24,000 bases of DNA from Alkalihalobacillus bogoriensis ATCC BAA-922 (GCF_000621445.1 NZ_KK211278.1:295383-319382), one strand, 5' to 3'; counted from the first letter of the stretch, positions 13,791-24,000 are shown. The notes: generated by a model not told the origin, from the letters alone. Numbers and translations are program-made.

Positions 13791-14450
13791 ATGGACTCTG
13801 GCGAAAAGGATAAGCAATGGTTGAAGAAACTGTTTGAGAAGGGGGCAGGCAAAAACGGGAAACAGAGAATGCACTATGTTGTCATGATTCTATGTGTTGG
13901 TGTAGCTCTAATGATATTAGGAAATTTCTTTTCTAGTGATGAGACATCTCCTACAAGTCAACCTGTTTTTAATTCAGACCAATCTTCCACAGACGATCAA
14001 CCAGTGTTCGGGCAAAGTGACAGTCCAGAACCAAATTCGATGAAAGATTATGAGATTCGCTATGAGAATCAACTTAAAGAAGTACTTGATGAAGTAGTTG
14101 GTGTTTCAGACGTTTCAATCATGATTAACTTAGCTGAAACGGAAAGAAATGTATATGAACGAAATACAAATACGAAAGAACAAGTGACTGATGAAACGGA
14201 CCGTGAAGGTGGCAAACGGAAAGTGGAGGACACAACAAGAGATGAGCAAGTCGTTATCGTCCGTAATGGGGATAGGGAGGAAGCCATTCTTGTGAAACAG
14301 GAAAAGCCAGAAATTAGAGGGGTTCTTGTTGTAGCCAAAGGAGTAGAAAACGCTCAAGTGAAAACATGGGTAGTAGAAGCGGTTAGTAGGGTACTAGATG
14401 TCCCTTCCCATCGTGTTTCTGTTCTACCGAAAAAAACAAAGGAGGAATAA
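13791..14450 (+). CDS. spoIIIAG: Stage III sporulation protein AG
   Basis: 219 aa with one TM segment, a disordered linker and a C-terminal ring-building-type domain (...IRGVLVVAKGVENAQVK...VSVLP). Position fits SpoIIIAG. Confidence 0.9.
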   Translation: MDSGEKDKQWLKKLFEKGAGKNGKQRMHYVVMILCVGVALMILGNFFSSDETSPTSQPVFNSDQSSTDDQPVFGQSDSPEPNSMKDYEIRYENQLKEVLDEVVGVSDVSIMINLAETERNVYERNTNTKEQVTDETDREGGKRKVEDTTRDEQVVIVRNGDREEAILVKQEKPEIRGVLVVAKGVENAQVKTWVVEAVSRVLDVPSHRVSVLPKKTKEE

Positions 14451-15261: not shown

Positions 15262-15624
15262 ATGGAATGGAATGATTTAACTGAAGGAGCAAAAGCAGTA
15301 CTTGAACAAACACGAAACTTAAAAAATGACAATATTCAAATTGTTGAGTTTGAAGTTGGATTTAAGCAGGAGTTTGAAACAGAAAGTGGAAGTGTATATA
15401 CAGTCTCTATTCAAGAGGAAGATTATGATAGCTTAAAACGCTTTACAAAAGAAAATGAGTACGGTGAAAAATACCACATGGCCCGAAATAAAAACATTGT
15501 AAAAATTATATTGTTGGAAAACGGAAAGATTCCAGATAATTTATCCGAGTTTCCTGTGTTTCGCCAATATAAATTAGACGCAATTGTAAAAGAAGAAGAA
15601 CAGGTAATAGAGGGTGAAGAATAA
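15262..15624 (+). CDS. Hypothetical small acidic cytoplasmic protein (family not recognised)
   Basis: 120-aa ORF with RBS AAAGGGAGAG at 15242-15251 and a strong terminator immediately after the stop. It has no TM segment, is rich in Glu/Asp, and I recognise no motif. Confidence 0.6.
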   Translation: MEWNDLTEGAKAVLEQTRNLKNDNIQIVEFEVGFKQEFETESGSVYTVSIQEEDYDSLKRFTKENEYGEKYHMARNKNIVKIILLENGKIPDNLSEFPVFRQYKLDAIVKEEEQVIEGEE

Positions 15625-16220: not shown

Positions 16221-17579
16221 ATGATAAAAAAACTACTCATAGCAAACCGAGGAGAAATTGCGGTACGAATTATCCGTGCTTGTAAAGAGCTTGGAGTTGA
16301 GACCGTTGCGGTATATTCTGAGGCAGATAAAGACTCTTTGCATGTCAGAATGGCCGACGAAGCGTATTGTATCGGACCAACATTATCTTCGAAAAGTTAT
16401 TTAAATTTTACGAACATAATGAGCGTTGCTACGTTAACAGAAGTTGATGCGATTCATCCCGGATACGGATTTTTAGCAGAAAATGCAGACTTTGCTGAAA
16501 TATGTGCAGCTTGTAATATTACATTTGTTGGACCAAGTCCTGAAGCAATAAATAAAATGGGGACAAAAGATGTTGCAAGAGACACAATGGAATCAGCAGG
16601 AGTCCCTATTGTCCCGGGTTCAGACGGTATCATACCGACTGTTGAAGATGGATTAAAGGTAGCAGAAGGAATTGGCTATCCTGTTATTATTAAAGCGACT
16701 GCTGGTGGCGGCGGAAAAGGTATCCGTGTTGCTCGTACACCAGAAGAATTGAAAAAAGGAATTTCAATTACGCAACAAGAAGCAGCGACGGCATTTGGGA
16801 ATCCTGGTGTTTACATTGAAAAGTATATTGAAGATTTCCGTCATGTTGAAATTCAAGTCATGGCAGATAATTATGGCAACGCTATTCATTTAGGTGAACG
16901 AGATTGTAGTATACAACGCCGATTGCAAAAATTAGTTGAGGAAACACCATCTCCAGCGATTACTCCAGAAAAACGAGCTGAAATGGGTGAAGCTGCGGTT
17001 GCTGCAGCAAAAGCGGTTAACTATTCAGGTGCGGGAACGGTTGAGTTTATTTTTGACCATAATACTGGTGACTTTTACTTTATGGAAATGAATACGAGAA
17101 TTCAAGTAGAACATCCAGTTACTGAAATGGTTACAGGGATTGACTTAATTAAAGAGCAAATTAAAGTGGCCTCAGGGCAAAAACTTTCAGTTACACAAGA
17201 TGAGGTTACCTTTAACGGCTGGTCGATTGAATGCCGCATTAATGCTGAAAACCCAGAGAAAAATTTTATGCCATCCCCAGGATTAATTAAAACTTATCTT
17301 CCTCCAGGAGGATTAGGTGTACGTGTTGATTCTGCAGCATACCAAGGGTATATGATTTCACCTTTTTATGATTCAATGATTGCAAAAGTCATCACGTATG
17401 GCGCCACTCGTGAAGAAGCGATTTCAAGAATGAAACGGGCATTAACTGAATTTGAAATTGAAGGCATTGATACGACGATTCCGTTTCATCTGAAACTATT
17501 AAATCATGAAGTGTTTGTATCAGGGGATTTTAATACGAAATTTTTAGAAACCTATGACTTAACAACAAAAGCAGAGTAA
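16221..17579 (+). CDS. accC: Biotin carboxylase subunit of acetyl-CoA carboxylase
   Basis: [20 protein letters not shown], the ATP-grasp motif GGGGKGIR and [14 protein letters not shown]. The start is ATG 16221 with RBS AGGAG. Confidence 0.96.
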
Positions 17580-17641
17580 GAAAAGCCTTTGTATGATATA
17601 CTCGTCATATAGGCTCCAAAATAAAATGGAGGTGTCGTATT

Positions 17642-18049
17642 ATGAGCGAAAATCATATTCTTGAAATGGATGATGAAAAAAACGAACTTGGTAAGGTTGA
17701 AATTTCTCCAGAAGTCATTGAAGTAATCTCAGGGATTGCAACTTCTGAAGTTGAAGGGGTTGCAACGATGCGTGGAAACTTTGCTACAGGCGTTGCTGAA
17801 CGACTTGGCCGCAAAAACCATGGAAAAGGTGTCAAAGTTGACCTTGGAGAAAGTGGAATTACTGTCGATGTAACTGTGACGATTACGTATGGGGTATCCA
17901 TTCCAGATGTAGCGAAAAAGATTCAATCCAACATTAAACAAGCACTTTTAACAATGACAGCCATTGATTTAGAAGCGGTAAATGTTCATGTTGTTGGAAT
18001 CCAGTTTGAACAAACGAGTGAAGCACCGTTAGAAGAAACGGGGATTTAA
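17642..18049 (+). CDS. Asp23/Gls24-family alkaline shock protein (YqhY-like)
   Basis: 135 aa. GKVEISPEVIEVISGIATSEVEGVA...GVKV is typical of Asp23/DUF322 proteins. Its position between accC and nusB matches B. subtilis yqhY. Confidence 0.85.
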   Translation: MSENHILEMDDEKNELGKVEISPEVIEVISGIATSEVEGVATMRGNFATGVAERLGRKNHGKGVKVDLGESGITVDVTVTITYGVSIPDVAKKIQSNIKQALLTMTAIDLEAVNVHVVGIQFEQTSEAPLEETGI

Positions 18050-18103
18050 TCGTAATACGGTTAAAACTGAATGGATTTGGAAATGCTAATTCCTAGAGAA
18101 GAC

Positions 18104-18132
18104 ACAGCCAAAGGACACCTTTGGCTGTTTTT
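18104..18132 (+). terminator. Rho-independent terminator after the Asp23-family gene
   Basis: Perfect 11-bp stem acagccaaagg / cctttggctgt with loop aca, followed by tttt. Confidence 0.8.
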
Positions 18133-18232
18133 CGATCAATTTCGCACTTTCAACTGTATTCATTTCAATAGTTATGCTATTATCGTACATAGAAAAAGAA
18201 GACAAAGGTACCAACAAAAGGAGTAAAAGCCA

Positions 18233-18622
18233 ATGAACAGAAGATTAGCGAGACTACGTGCAGTCCAAGCCTTGTTTCAAATTGATTTAACAGGCTCACA
18301 ATGGCAAGAGGCAATTGAGAGCACGCTCGATGAAAATGAAGAAACGAGTCCTTTTTTAGAAAATCTTGTTCAAGGAACACTAGAACATAAACCTGAAATT
18401 GACTCGATCTTAAAAAAGAATATTGAAAATTGGTCATTGGAACGAGTCGGGAACGTAGACCGTGCGATTTTACGTATGGCCATTTATGAAATTTTACACA
18501 TTGAGGACATTCCTAAAAATGTAACATTTAATGAAGCTATCGAGTTAGGAAAAGCATTCGGGGGAGAAGAATCTGGACGCTTTATTAACGGGGTACTTTC
18601 AAACGTTGTAGAGCAAATATAA
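18233..18622 (+). CDS. nusB: Transcription antitermination factor NusB
   Basis: 129 aa. RRLARLRAVQALFQID...DRAILRMAIYEIL...EAIELGKAFGGEESGRFINGVL is canonical NusB. Confidence 0.95.
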   Translation: MNRRLARLRAVQALFQIDLTGSQWQEAIESTLDENEETSPFLENLVQGTLEHKPEIDSILKKNIENWSLERVGNVDRAILRMAIYEILHIEDIPKNVTFNEAIELGKAFGGEESGRFINGVLSNVVEQI

Positions 18623-18649
18623 AAAAAGAAATGGGATAGGAGTGTGAAA

Positions 18650-19501
18650 ATGATGACAGCAGAAGTCATTAGTGGGAAAGAATTAGCTATACAAAAGAGA
18701 GAAGAGATGAAACAAGAAGTAATGAAGTTAAAGCAGGGGGGAATAACACCTGGATTAGCTGTTATTTTGATTGGAAACGACCCAGCTTCAAGGTCATATG
18801 TTAAAGCGAAACAAAAAGCATGTGAAGACATTGGAGTTCATTCTGTTCTTATTGAAATGGAAGATTCTATTTCTGAGCAACAATTATTAAATCAAATTTA
18901 TGATTTAAATGAAGATAAGGCAATTCATGGTATTTTAGTTCAATTGCCGTTACCTAACCATATTCAAGAACAGGCGGTCATTGAAGCGATTGTTCCAGAA
19001 AAAGATGTCGATGGATTCCATCCGATTAACATTGGTAAAATGATGATTGGGGAAGAAACATTTTTACCTTGTACTCCTTTAGGTATTGTTGAAATGATTA
19101 AATCAAAAGGGATTGAAATAGCGGGAAAACACGTGGTCGTTATTGGACGTAGTAATATCGTCGGAAAGCCAGTAGGACAACTTTTATTAAATGAACATGC
19201 AACTGTCACCTATTGTCATTCTCGAACAACTAATATGAAGTCAATTACACAACAGGCGGATATCCTCGTTGTCGCAGTTGGAAAAGCGAACTTTATTGGA
19301 GCTGATTACATAAAAAAAGGTGCTGTTGTCATTGATGTTGGGGTGAACCGTCTTGAGACAGGAAAGTTATGTGGAGACGTAAAATACGAGGAAACAAAAG
19401 AAGTCGCGTCTTTTATTACACCTGTTCCTGGTGGAGTAGGACCAATGACGATTACGATGCTTCTTCATAATACGATTGAAGCGGCAAAACGTTATGCATA
19501 A
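18650..19501 (+). CDS. folD: Bifunctional methylenetetrahydrofolate dehydrogenase/cyclohydrolase
   Basis: [44 protein letters not shown] and [10 protein letters not shown]. The start is probably ATG 18650 or 18653, with RBS AGGAGTG; the ORF track uses GTG 18644. Confidence 0.95.
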
Positions 19502-19513
19502 TAAGGTGTTTTT

Positions 19514-20884
19514 ATGAAACAAGAACAATTTTTAACAGTTACAGAAGTAACGAGGTATATAAAGAAAACATTTGATTTAGACGATGTTCTTCAAGATGTT
19601 TGGATTCGCGGGGAACTTTCAAATTTTAAATTACATAGTCGTGGACATATGTATTTTACGGTTAAAGATTCAGGGTCAAGAATGCAAGCAGTCATGTTTG
19701 CTGGGAATAATCGCTCACTTACATTTAAACCAGAAGACGGTATGAAAGTGTTAATTCGTGGCAATGTTTCTGTATATGAACCATATGGACAATATCAGTT
19801 GTATGCTCGTGAGATGCAACCAGATGGAATCGGAAATTTATATTTGGCATATGAGCAATTAAAACAAAAGCTTGAAGCGGAAGGGTTGTTCCATCCTGAA
19901 CATAAAAAGCCCTTACCACGTTTTGTCCAACATATTGCCATTGTCACATCACCAACGGGAGCAGCAATTAAAGATATGATTACGACGATTAAACGCCGTT
20001 ACCCGATTGCTAAAGTTACGTTACTTCCGGTGTTAGTTCAAGGTGAGGGGGCAGCACCATCGATTGCACGCGCGATTGAACAAGCAAATCAAGCTAATTT
20101 ATTTGATATTGTTATTGTTGGTCGTGGCGGAGGGTCTATTGAAGAATTATGGGCCTTTAATGAAGAGCTTGTTGCTAGAGCGATCTTCTCATCTGTTTTG
20201 CCAGTTATTTCGGCAGTTGGACATGAAACGGATTTTACGATTGCTGATTTTGTAGCTGATGTAAGAGCAGCTACGCCAACAGCGGCAGCTGAACTCGCAG
20301 TTCCACATATAGAAGAATTAATACAGAGAGTCGAAGGATTACAACAACGAATGCTCCGTGCGACTAAGGACCGTTTAGGGAATGAACGACAACGTTTGTC
20401 GCGCTTACAGAAGTCCTATGCTTTCCGATATCCTGAACAACTAATCAAGCAAAAGGAACAGCAACTTGACCGGACAATTGAAAAGTTGGAAAAAGAGTTT
20501 TTACGTATGATTAAACAAAAGCAAGATACAGTAGAAAAATTAACGAATGCTGTTGAACGAAATCATCCGGCCCGCTTGATAGCGGAAGCAAAAAAACAAC
20601 ATGAACACATGAGGCAAACATTAATTCGTTTATTGAAAGAAAAAACAACCAAATCCGAAAATCAATTTCAGCAGCAACTTGCAAAGCTACAAGTCTTAAG
20701 TCCACTGGCGATGATGGATCGAGGATATAATTTGGCTTATGGTGAGAATAAACAGTTAATAAAATCGACTCGTCATGTTTCAAAAGGGGATAAACTCACG
20801 ATTCGAGTAAAAGATGGCCATATTTATAGCGTTGTTGAAGATATAGAAACAAAAGAAGTAACAGGAGGAAATGAAAATGAGTAA
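19514..20884 (+). CDS. xseA: Exodeoxyribonuclease VII large subunit
   Basis: 456 aa with an N-terminal OB fold ([24 protein letters not shown]), the catalytic region [16 protein letters not shown] and a coiled-coil C-terminus. Confidence 0.94.
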
Positions 20885-21119
20885 GCCAGAAACTGAAATC
20901 ACGTTCGAACTTGCACTTGAACAACTTGAAGAGGTGGTCGATAAGTTAGAGCAAGGGGATGTACCATTAGAGGAAGCTATTGCCATGTTTCAAGAGGGAA
21001 TGAAACTATCGAAAGTATGCCATGACAAGCTGTCAGCTGTAGAAAAACAAATGGAACAAATTTTACATGCAGACGGTCAAGTGGAAGTCACGAGCTTTCA
21101 GGAGGATCATAAAGAGTGA
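20871..21119 (+). CDS. xseB: Exodeoxyribonuclease VII small subunit
   Basis: 82 aa. [39 protein letters not shown] is typical XseB. It overlaps the xseA end by 14 nt, and ATG 20877 is an alternative start. Confidence 0.92.
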
Positions 21120-22009
21120 GAAACGAAAGACTACAACAATTTCTAGCGATACATAAACAAAAGATTGATGAGGCTCTCCCACAGCACATTCAGAAGCTTC
21201 AAGCACCAGAAAGTTTAAAGGAAGCGATGGTTTATTCTTTGCAAGCTGGTGGGAAGCGTGTCCGTCCGATATTATTATTAGCGACTCTACATGGTTTTAA
21301 CCAAAAAGAAGAACTTGGGATTGATGTCGCATGTGCGATCGAAATGATCCACACGTATTCTTTAATTCATGATGATTTACCGGCGATGGATGATGATGAT
21401 ATGCGTCGTGGGAAACCAACAAATCATAAAGTGTTTGGTGAAGCATTAGCCATCTTAGCTGGCGATGCCCTCCTTACGTATAGTTTTCAATTAATAGCAG
21501 GTTTGAAACATCCAAGCATCACATCTGAAATGAAAGTGAAGCTAATGGAACTATTAGCGAAAGCAGCTGGACCAGAAGGAATGGTAGGTGGACAAGTTTC
21601 AGATTTAGATGGTGAAGGGAAAACGTTACAACTGGATGATCTGGAATATATCCACCACCATAAAACAGGGGATTTACTTGCTTATTCGGTTGTAGCTGGT
21701 GCCATTTTAGCGAACGCTGAGCAAGCAGAGGTGGACAATCTTCATGCTTTTGCAAAAGAATTAGGTCTTGTTTTCCAAATTAAAGATGATATTCTTGATG
21801 TTGAAGGTGATGAACAGACGATTGGAAAGCCGATTGGGAGTGACGAGGATAATAATAAAGTGACGTATCCGAGCCTTTTAACAATGGACGGGGCAAAAGC
21901 AAAATTAAATGAGCATACTTCACGAGCAAAAGAATATTTATATAAAGTAAAGATGGAAAATTCTTTGTTAGAAGCGATTACAGAGTATATCGCTGAGCGT
22001 GACCATTAA
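21116..22009 (+). CDS. ispA: Farnesyl diphosphate synthase (geranyltranstransferase)
   Basis: Contains the first aspartate-rich motif ([16 protein letters not shown]) and the second (KDDILD). The GTG start overlaps the xseB stop (GTGA). Confidence 0.93.
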
Positions 22010-22038
22010 CTAATTCTCATCTCTTCCATACATTTTCA

Positions 22039-22067
22039 TTGAGGATGTACGAAGCAGGTGTTATAAT
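22039..22067 (+). promoter_or_regulatory. Candidate sigma-A promoter with extended -10 directly upstream of the OLE RNA
   Basis: TTGAGG (22039-22044), a 17-nt spacer, then TATAAT (22062-22067) preceded by TG at 22059-22060. The predicted TSS at about 22074 is a few nt before the 5' strand of the RNA's closing helix (22078). Confidence 0.5.
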
Positions 22068-22075
22068 AACTTGTA

Positions 22076-22682
22076 AAACTGAGTGGTGCAGTATTCTAGT
22101 CAGTTCTCTATACTTGAGGGCGGGCCTAAAAATCCGCCGAAGGGCACATCGATGAAGCTCCTTGTGTCGGCTTGAGGCGCCCAGCCTTGGGTCGGCGCTG
22201 GGTGTTAAGGTATTCGGGCGATCCACAACGGCATGTGGGCGTTGACCCTAATACCGCGGAGGCCTTTCTTTTTCATGCTACACATTAAGGTGTAAAGTGG
22301 AAAGAAGGGTATGAACCTGCGACAGTAGCTTTGGGAAGCATACTAGCAGCGTAGCCTGCCTTGAGTGGAGTTAGAGGGGATTATGGAAATTGGGGATATT
22401 TTAGTTGTCGGCCAACAACGAATATTCTTTGCCATATGAAATCTGCTCTGCAAAAGAGGATAAAAGTATAGCAAGGGCTGTTGAGGAAAACTCCTAGACT
22501 GTTCATAAGACATATAAAGGGGATTGAAGTGTGGACTAAGTGGTAATCCAGTCTAGCGTTTGGTGACAGCGCTAAGATAGGTTTAAAGGGAAACCGTCAG
22601 ATCGGCGACGATTTGGTACTTATTTGGGAAATCCTACTGGACCTAAGCCACAGCTTTTACTCTTTATATGACCACTCAGTCC
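22076..22682 (+). ncRNA. ole: OLE (ornate, large, extremophilic) RNA
   Basis: The ORF-free gap between ispA and the next CDS is 743 nt. Closing helix actgagtggt (22078-22087) / accactcagt (22671-22680). Internal helices include 22494-22501/22549-22556, 22119-22123/22134-22138, 22178-22184/22198-22204, 22404-22408/22415-22419 and 22580-22584/22591-22595. The region is GC-richer than its flanks, about 605 nt long, and has the hallmark context ispA-ole-oapA-dxs. Boundaries are approximate, to about 15 nt. Confidence 0.85.
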
Positions 22683-22752
22683 GTACATACTCTTAAACGT
22701 TTACAATTGGTTGTAAATAGTTTAATAATATAAAGGTGTCGATTACTTAACG

Positions 22753-23364
22753 ATGAAACATTCCCTTTTGAAAACTATACACTGGAGCTTAGGGATTGCC
22801 GTTATCACGCTTGTGTTAGCGGCTATTTTTTCAATTATTTCAACCTTCTTATTAAGTGGAGTAACATGGGGGGTTGGAATGATAATCGTCTTACTAATTG
22901 TATTAGTTGGTATATTTTTTGATACAATTGGTGTAGCTGCCACGGCAGCAAATGAAGCTCCATTTCATGCGATGGCTGCGAAAAAGTTAGCTGGTGCAAA
23001 AGAAGCTGTTCAAATTACGAGAAACGCAGATAAATTTGCAAACTTTTGCAATGATGTCATTGGTGATATTTCAGGTATTGTTAGTGGAACTGCTTCAGCC
23101 TATGTTGTTCTTCAAATTGCATTGCAATTAGGGTACGATGATGGGTCCTATTTTCAGTTTTTTATATCGGTCCTGTTTACGAGTGTTGTTGCAGCCCTTA
23201 CGGTTAGTGGGAAATCGATTGGAAAAACGATGGCTATACAATTTTCGACGCCAATTATTTATCAAGTTGGTAGATTATTGTATATTATAGAGGTAAAATT
23301 AAAAATAAGTCTTTTTTCAAAAAATGGGAAGAGTAAACGAAAAGAGCAGAAAAAGCGAAAGTGA
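22753..23364 (+). CDS. oapA: OLE-associated protein A (small 4-TM membrane protein)
   Basis: 203 aa with four predicted TM segments and a Lys/Arg-rich C-terminal tail ([14 protein letters not shown]). It lies immediately downstream of the OLE-like RNA and upstream of dxs, which is the published position of oapA. The first in-frame start after the stop at 22726 is ATG 22753, and its SD is weak. Confidence 0.8.
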
Positions 23365-23372
23365 GGGTATTT

Positions 23373-24000
23373 ATGGATATCGAGAGTATTAAAGACCCTA
23401 GTGCCATAAAATCTTTATCAAAACAAGAATTAGAATATGTAGCAAGTGATATCCGGAGTTTTTTAATTGAAAAGCTTTCAGTAACAGGCGGACATTTAGG
23501 ACCAAATTTAGGTGTTGTGGAGCTAACACTAGCCTTACATTATTGCTTTGATAGTCCTAAAGATAAATTAATTTGGGATGTTGGTCATCAAGCGTATGTT
23601 CATAAGATTTTAACTGGACGAGCAAATCAATTTGACGCACTAAGACAATATAAAGGGCTTTGTGGATTTCCAAAGCGTGATGAAAGTGAACATGACGTCT
23701 GGGAAACCGGACATAGTTCAACTTCTTTATCAGCGGCGATGGGCATGGCAACAGCAAGAGATATTAAAGGAACAGATGATAATGTCATTGCTATTATTGG
23801 TGATGGCGCCCTAACAGGTGGAATGGCATTAGAGGCATTAAACCATATTGGGCATGAACAAAAAGACTTAATTGTTATTTTAAATGATAATGAAATGTCG
23901 ATCGCACCAAATGTAGGAGCATTACACAATGTATTAGCGAAGCTTCGTACAGCAGGGAAATACCAAAAAGCAAAAGAAGAGCTTGAAATGCTCATTAAAA
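23373..24000 (+). CDS. dxs: 1-deoxy-D-xylulose-5-phosphate synthase (5' part; continues beyond the window)
   Basis: Open frame from ATG 23373 (RBS GTGAGGG) to the window end. It contains [38 protein letters not shown] and the TPP motif [15 protein letters not shown]...NDN. It is absent from the ORF track only because it has no stop within the window. Confidence 0.95.

Follow-up and report, generated by a model that had tools for sequence, protein, structure and literature searches.

Gene neighbourhood of the ole locus

The window analysed here, the whole stretch of 24,000 nucleotides from Alkalihalobacillus bogoriensis ATCC BAA-922 (GCF_000621445.1, NZ_KK211278.1:295383-319382), carries towards its end the gene order nusB-folD-xseA-xseB-ispA, ole, the gene for an OapA-like membrane protein, and dxs. 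This region contains the following features:

18233-22009, plus strand: upstream cluster of nusB, folD, xseA, xseB and ispA (Pfam and NCBIfam matches)
22039-22067, plus strand: predicted ole-proximal sigma-A-type promoter, with -35 TTGAGG at 22039-22044, a 17-nucleotide spacer and an extended -10 TGtTATAAT at 22059-22067
22067-22691, plus strand: OLE RNA gene, boundaries of the Rfam match; structured core from P1 at 22078/22081 to 22677/22680
22685-22690, plus strand: TACATA box, just 3' of P1
22753-23364, plus strand: oapA, encoding a 203-amino-acid membrane protein, directly downstream of ole here and in all 80 of the best of at least 479 relatives
23373-24000, plus strand: 5' part of dxs, which runs past the window's end (DXP_synthase_N, E 6.5e-100)

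The genes from nusB to ispA are tightly packed, with gaps of 21 and 12 nucleotides and overlaps of 14 and 4 nucleotides. The last of them, ispA, encodes a farnesyl diphosphate synthase (NCBIfam FPPsyn, 440 bits) and ends at 22009, and according to the ORF survey of the window the next credible open reading frame starts at 22753, leaving a gap of 743 nucleotides. At 47.1%, the G+C content of 22076-22682 exceeds that of the whole window (37.8%) and that of the remaining intergenic DNA, where single stretches have 24-36%. A preliminary description of this DNA had pointed out the dense packing of nusB to ispA, the long stretch lacking a credible ORF and its higher G+C content, and had compared the locus with the operon order nusB-folD-xseA-xseB-ispA-ole-oapA-dxs of other Firmicutes; its observations on the sequence are borne out, and the flanking genes match that order.

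Further upstream lie spoIIIAA-AH, accB, accC and an Asp23-family gene. The latter probably corresponds to yqhY, listed in the literature as an ole-associated gene (PMC12265935). A strong terminator-like hairpin at 18104-18128, bidirectional and with six G-C pairs among its 11 bp, separates the Asp23-family gene from nusB, which suggests that the cluster from nusB to dxs forms a transcription unit apart from accBC-asp23.

Two ORFs in the upstream part are without a Pfam family at E 0.001, one of 120 amino acids between spoIIIAH and accB (15262-15624) and one of 219 amino acids at the place where spoIIIAG is expected (13791-14450). The first 9000 nucleotides of the window encode an ABC transporter ATPase, a histidine kinase, a spore photoproduct lyase and a DtxR/MntR-type metal repressor, together with a patatin, YqhR, a type II dehydroquinase, an M24 peptidase and EF-P. 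This context is typical of spore-forming Bacillaceae, and spoIIIA, splB and further genes of the window are characteristic of spore-forming Bacillota. Among the matches listed, alkaliphilic or halophilic members of the Bacillaceae, for example Halalkalibacter and Alkalihalophilus, are the nearest relatives.

A full-length match to the OLE RNA family

The whole window was scanned against Rfam 15, and the gap between ispA and oapA gave a match to model RF01071 with 515.9 bits (gathering score 50) and an E value of 7.8e-149. This match is 625 nucleotides long and not truncated, covers model positions 1-616 of 616 and agrees with 238 of the 249 upper-case consensus positions. No family besides OLE reached its gathering score anywhere in the window. 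The identification as OLE RNA, for which the preliminary description had proposed exactly this search, is thereby supported, and the accession RF01071 that it had named is indeed that of the OLE model. Its further statements that OLE RNA is a class already described, whose biochemical function is not yet settled, and that B. halodurans knockouts are sensitive to alcohol, cold and excess Mg2+, agree with the literature (PMC3413148, PMC10898510, PMC12265935).

The 607-nucleotide RNA has a predicted folding energy of -226.7 kcal/mol, compared with -183.5 ± 6.2 kcal/mol for dinucleotide shuffles (z = -7.0), and the terminal helix 22078-22087/22671-22680 is included in the minimum free energy structure.

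Conservation and covariation among relatives

Relatives were gathered via the downstream 203-amino-acid protein, yielding at least 479 stretches in species-representative genomes. The best 80 of these belong to Bacillaceae and neighbouring families and show 59-81% identity to the protein. An OLE homolog is located immediately upstream of oapA on the same strand in each of these best 80 (nhmmer E 1e-119 to 1e-60), and all 17 diverse loci tested match the Rfam model at 489-534 bits. Over the locus, the closest species representatives among the matches listed are 72-73% identical, and the OLE RNA itself is at most 78% identical to those of the genome representatives compared. On the opposite strand, stop-free stretches of up to 190 amino acids occur in several of the best 80 relatives, similar to same-composition shuffles; these long stretches are attributable to the purine-rich sense strand.

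An alignment of 78 distinct sequences was made with MAFFT, which is not structure-aware, and the Rfam structure was projected onto it by way of the window's alignment to the model. Over 200 of the columns show no variation among the 78 relatives. In the consensus structure 83.6% of the cells are standard pairs, and both partners have changed in 114 of the 169 pairs. Not one of 500 column shuffles attained these values on any of the five measures. If the 3' partners are slid by 1-3 columns, pairing falls to 40-46%. The low pairing of P7, P8 and distal P9 in this alignment can be explained by misalignment of these hypervariable helices by MAFFT. Judged by these column counts and shuffles, the homologous loci conserve the structure and covary in it. 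The stems P1, P3.1 and P3 are missing from the Rfam structure line, yet they covary; the literature consensus includes P1, P2 and P3/P3.1 (PMC12265935).

Helices and motifs of the OLE RNA

From 5' to 3', the following elements were assigned, with pairing values referring to the 78 sequences:

22078-22087, plus strand: 5' strand of P1, pairing with 22671-22680; conserved part 22081-22087 with 22671-22677
22089-22099, plus strand: 5' strand of P2, CAGU..CUAG, of which 22089-22092 and 22096-22099 pair with CUAGACUG at 22494-22501
22101-22106 with 22475-22480, plus strand: P3.1, five of six pairs compensatory, 95.5% paired
22108-22115 with 22464-22471, plus strand: P3, seven of eight pairs compensatory, 63% paired
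22119-22138, plus strand: P4 hairpin with the A-rich loop L4 CCUAAAAAU at 22125-22133; 100% paired, three compensatory pairs, loop invariant
22147-22157, plus strand: P4a palindrome CAUCGAUG at 22147-22154 (AUCGAU) and J4a/5 GAUGAAG, invariant
22158-22178 with 22184-22204, plus strand: P5/P5.1, loop L5.1 GCCCA at 22179-22183
22209-22218 with 22246-22255, and 22223-22227 with 22234-22238, plus strand: P6/P6.1, loop ACGGCA
22263-22280 with 22293-22309, plus strand: P7, from the Rfam model alignment
22317-22331 with 22336-22349, plus strand: P8, from the Rfam model alignment
22358-22460, plus strand: long P9 arm with the nearly invariant terminal loop palindrome GGCC at 22410-22413
22511-22521 with 22660-22670, and 22530-22534 with 22648-22652, plus strand: outer helices of the 3' domain (22511-22670)
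22547-22552 with 22636-22641, plus strand: P12.2
22554-22574, plus strand: P13, GUGA tetraloop at 22563-22566, bulged U at 22559
22575-22582 with 22618-22625, plus strand: P14
22596-22617, plus strand: P14.1, GCGA tetraloop at 22605-22608

The inner 7 bp of P1 are paired in 99.8% and include three compensatory pairs, whereas pairing of the outer 3 bp, which are specific to the window, is seen in only 31-68% of the relatives. P2 is paired in 99.7-100% of the sequences and essentially invariant, so that it gives no covariation signal; its CUAG palindrome (22096-22099 with 22494-22497) is identical in all 78. The value of 63% for P3 is lowered by gaps that MAFFT introduced. Together, P3 and P3.1 comprise 14 bp; a membrane-crossing role has been proposed for this stem, with an estimated need of about 12-14 bp (PMC12265935).

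The palindromes in or near P2 and P4a have been mapped as OapA sites (PMC12265935). J4a/5 is one side of a k-turn bound by OapC (PMC12265935, PMC12286853), and the nucleotides of the k-turn, described in J4a/5 and J6/7 (PMC12286853), are present in both segments. The helices P5/P5.1 and P6/P6.1 (22158-22255) are 86-100% paired with compensatory pairs, and their GCC/GGC loop triplets are complementary and invariant, L5.1 and L6.1 being known as kissing loops (PMC12265935). In the A-rich L4 loop an A-A bridge constitutes dimer bridge B1, and the palindromic P9 loop is the kissing loop of dimer bridge B3 (PMC12286853); L4, L5.1/L6.1 and the GGCC loop of P9 are dimer contacts in cryo-EM (PMC12286853, PMC12265935). 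P7 and P8 (22263-22349) are highly variable with both-sided changes throughout and mark the full-length OLE type. Since P7, P8 and P9 all have their full length, the RNA belongs to this type and not to variant 1 or 2, as these types are defined in PMC11332333. The helices of the 3' domain are 87-100% paired with many compensatory pairs. Here, the GNRA tetraloop of P13 together with its single-nucleotide bulge is the primary OapB site and the tetraloop of P14.1 the secondary one (PMC7936274). Judged by sequence, the motifs that the literature assigns to OapA, OapB and dimerisation are all present and invariant or nearly so.

Six pairs of complementary strings had been listed in the preliminary description as examples of helices. 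All six exist at the positions where they had been placed, and in the 78 sequences half of them are conserved as helices. The 10-bp terminal helix is an exact complement and corresponds to P1, but only its inner 7 bp are conserved; ggcgg/ccgcc matches P4 and gttgt/acaac the tip of P9. The remaining three are not supported, showing no both-sided change in the 78 sequences. The pair cgcccag/ctgggtg overlaps covarying helices: GCCCA is loop L5.1, and ctgggtg makes up the 3' side of P5. In 77 of the 78 sequences, one of the base pairs proposed for it does not form. For ggttt/aaacc, which overlaps P14 and a conserved internal loop, 68% pairing was found, and ctagactg/cagtctag overlaps P2, P12.2 and P13 with one pair failing in 37 of 78.

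Promoter and read-through

Among promoter-like sites in 17000-24000, the predicted promoter at 22039-22067 scores best, with TG and 10 of 12 matches, and would start transcription at about 22073-22076. All 79 related flanks share this layout, placed at a constant distance upstream of P1; the -10 matches at five or six of six positions, 56 flanks have the TG and 51 a spacer of 17 nucleotides, and the commonest -35 is TTGAG[C/G/A]. In B. halodurans, an equivalent promoter gave more than 100-fold higher OLE expression, and the 5' ends were located near the start of P1 (PMC3413148); thus, the promoter is an already known feature.

Terminator-like sites were not detected in the spacers flanking ole (22010-22066 and 22692-22752), and the only match of the terminator scan in the ole region is the internal P14.1 hairpin (22596-22617). 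Since no intrinsic terminator is present on either side of ole, read-through from nusB-ispA and into oapA-dxs is likely. Co-transcription with the neighbouring genes has been reported for B. halodurans (PMC12265935, PMC3413148).

The spacer between OLE and oapA contains a weak AT-rich hairpin, TTTACAAttggTTGTAAA, at 22700-22717. A promoter-like site at 22700-22729 (TTTACA, 18 nucleotides, AATAAT) is probably spurious, since it would start transcription within the ribosome-binding site of oapA. The Shine-Dalgarno-like AGGTG of oapA is located 14 nucleotides before the ATG at 22753 (22734-22755), a distance longer than usual. Relatives have AAAGGTGAT at a similar distance, so this spacing seems to be conserved.

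A TACATA box downstream of P1

The TACATA box is located 4-10 nucleotides past P1 and is near-invariant in Bacillaceae-type ole loci. Of 76 distinct Bacillaceae-type flanks, 73 (96%) have it within 36 nucleotides after P1, compared with 9 of 98 flanks of diverse metagenomic OLE loci (9%) and a chance expectation of about 2%. It is absent from the tail of the Rfam consensus, and no mention of it was found in the part of the OLE literature that could be searched.

Intrinsic terminators directly after OLE are present in 13 of the 98 diverse metagenomic loci but in only 2 of the 76 Bacillaceae-type loci; by eye, the metagenomic loci with terminators are mostly lower-scoring and AT-rich. This contrast suggests that lineages may form the 3' end of OLE differently.

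Other roles of the box were considered and rejected. In several loci it lies about 20-30 nucleotides from the start codon of oapA, which leaves no room for a promoter of this gene, and as a -10 element it would be poor, lacking the final T. Pairing with the 5' leader was considered as well, and a complementary TGTA upstream was found in a minority of loci only.

The downstream gene encodes a protein with hallmarks of OapA

At standard thresholds the 203-amino-acid protein matches no Pfam or NCBIfam family. Its match to the CNNM family PF01595 has 17.3 bits (E 0.0039) and stays below the gathering score of 28.4; 21 of 24 orthologs match CNNM, the best with an E value of 1.6e-05. A DxxxD motif, DVIGD, is found at residues 101-105 inside an invariant block, and the C-terminal tail is basic, with 11 K/R among the last 25 residues. 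According to a simple hydropathy scan, residues 4-67, which offer room for two helices, and residues 131-156 are hydrophobic, while the segment after DxxxD is less so. Sequence and profile searches for related solved structures returned only chance matches to spike proteins. In its sequence, the protein carries the published hallmarks of OapA (PMC11332333, PMC12265935).

OapA resembles the CNNM-domain Mg2+ transporters MpfA and CorB in its transmembrane region, weakly so by PF01595, and has a similar predicted fold (PMC11332333). However, the similarity is below threshold in Pfam and OapA has neither the CBS nor the CorC domain; moreover, it has the DxxxD motif that CNNM lacks, and four instead of three transmembrane helices (PMC11332333). 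The phylogenetic distributions of OapA and MpfA/CorB are anticorrelated (PMC11332333).

Discussion

The best explanation overall, which we hold with high confidence, is that the locus is a full-length OLE RNA gene with its own promoter and the OLE fold, the roles of its partners being carried over from known systems. The RNA is similar to that of H. halodurans C-125 in length, model coverage, conserved nucleotides and the stems P1 to P14.1, in the OapA palindromes, the P13 GNRA tetraloop with its bulge and the palindromic P9 loop, and also in the proximal promoter, the directly downstream oapA and the nusB-folD-xseA-xseB-ispA/dxs neighbourhood. No class-defining difference was found; the outer 3 bp of P1 are particular to the window. 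OLE variants 1 and 2 (TANB77 and RF39 clades; PMC11332333) have the conserved core nucleotides as well and are likewise associated with OapA, but in these variants P7, P8 and P9 are shortened or missing and the OapB site is often absent, whereas the RNA described here has all of them. GOLLD, ROOL and the raiA motif are likewise large structured non-coding RNAs whose functions are at best partly known, and GOLLD and ROOL are homo-oligomeric as well (PMC12286853); however, they are unrelated in sequence and fold, have no OapA partner, and form nanocages in contrast to the membrane-associated dimer of OLE. None of the three matches the window at Rfam gathering scores.

A possible mechanism can be carried over from cryo-EM work on OLE RNAs of clostridia and from experiments with Halalkalibacterium halodurans. 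By analogy, the RNA would be abundant, stable and induced by alcohol (PMC3413148), and would bind OapA via the palindromes in P2 and P4a, leading to membrane localisation. This localisation has been described as dependent on OapA, with a protein:RNA complex of 2:1 and a possibly membrane-spanning P3 (PMC12265935, PMC12286853). The RNA would dimerise via the A-rich L4, the kissing loops L5.1 and L6.1 and the palindromic P9 loop with GGCC, and would recruit OapB to the GNRA tetraloop of P13 and both OapC and bS21 to the P5/P6 region. OLE may in this way serve as the subunit for sensing and scaffolding in a membrane ribonucleoprotein that would modulate OapA, a distant CNNM/MpfA-like divalent-cation transporter, and couple it to translation and to the status of the envelope. 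The outcome would be tolerance of short-chain alcohols, cold, excess Mg2+ and poor carbon sources, conditions for which roles of OLE have been reported (PMC10898510). The models of transporter regulation and of a membrane-spanning RNA are hypotheses of their authors (PMC12265935). Of the mechanisms considered, a sensing and scaffolding ribonucleoprotein modulating OapA is the most likely one, and we give it about an even chance.

It might also be that OLE RNA is mainly a ribozyme for an unidentified reaction, rather than a scaffold and regulator of OapA, but we consider this unlikely. Its size, the approximately 25% of near-invariant nucleotides and the complex fold resemble those of large ribozymes, which was the original speculation of the discoverers (PMC12265935, PMC11332333), and the long invariant single-stranded segments would be compatible with an active site. 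Nevertheless, about 20 years have passed without a substrate or reaction being found and splicing products were not seen (PMC3413148), and according to the authors' present view the demands on a membrane RNA could account for the conservation (PMC12265935); moreover, none of the features of the window bears on catalysis. Considerably less probable still is that the element acts as a long cis-acting 5' leader of oapA-dxs, i.e. a riboswitch or attenuator, and not as a free-standing RNA. The terminator-free junction with oapA would fit such a leader, as would an OLE promoter that probably drives oapA too. However, Rfam classifies OLE as a gene and not as a cis-regulatory element, and in B. halodurans a single stable band of about 600 nucleotides is observed that is among the most abundant RNAs (PMC3413148). 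There, OLE is induced about 7-fold while the oapA mRNA is only modestly changed (PMC3413148). A terminator/antiterminator alternative is not present either, and some lineages terminate OLE with an intrinsic terminator of its own.

The reading to which we attach hardly any credence explains the conservation by a protein gene on the opposite strand, either the 69-amino-acid ORF at 22017-22226 or the 56-amino-acid ORF at 22343-22513. That the gap contains antisense ORFs only had been noted in the preliminary description for the first of these and holds with the second one added. Many relatives do have long stop-free antisense stretches, with medians of 93-101 amino acids, but shuffled sequences give equal lengths (mean about 81 amino acids), and thus composition explains these open stretches. 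Furthermore, 29 of 78 relatives do not keep the frame of the window open, Pfam has no family for the ORF, and the variation is that of compensatory base pairing and not codon-like.

A full-length OLE RNA thus remains our preferred reading, and nothing departs from the known class: the locus is one more canonical OLE in a canonical neighbourhood and leaves existing knowledge unchanged. The practical gain is the correct annotation of the RNA gene, its promoter and oapA, and an additional sequence for comparative structure work on an RNA that ranks among the largest and best-conserved bacterial non-coding RNAs without known biochemical function and that has recently been proposed to span the membrane (PMC12265935). 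The TACATA box is the sole item that might add to knowledge, and modestly so. We tentatively raise the idea, with the chances rather against it, that the UACAUA box of Bacillaceae-type ole loci is an undescribed functional signal, for instance an endonuclease or protein site setting the 3' end of OLE. If this is true, UACAUA would separate the stable OLE RNA from the co-transcribed oapA-dxs mRNA, replacing the intrinsic terminator of other lineages.
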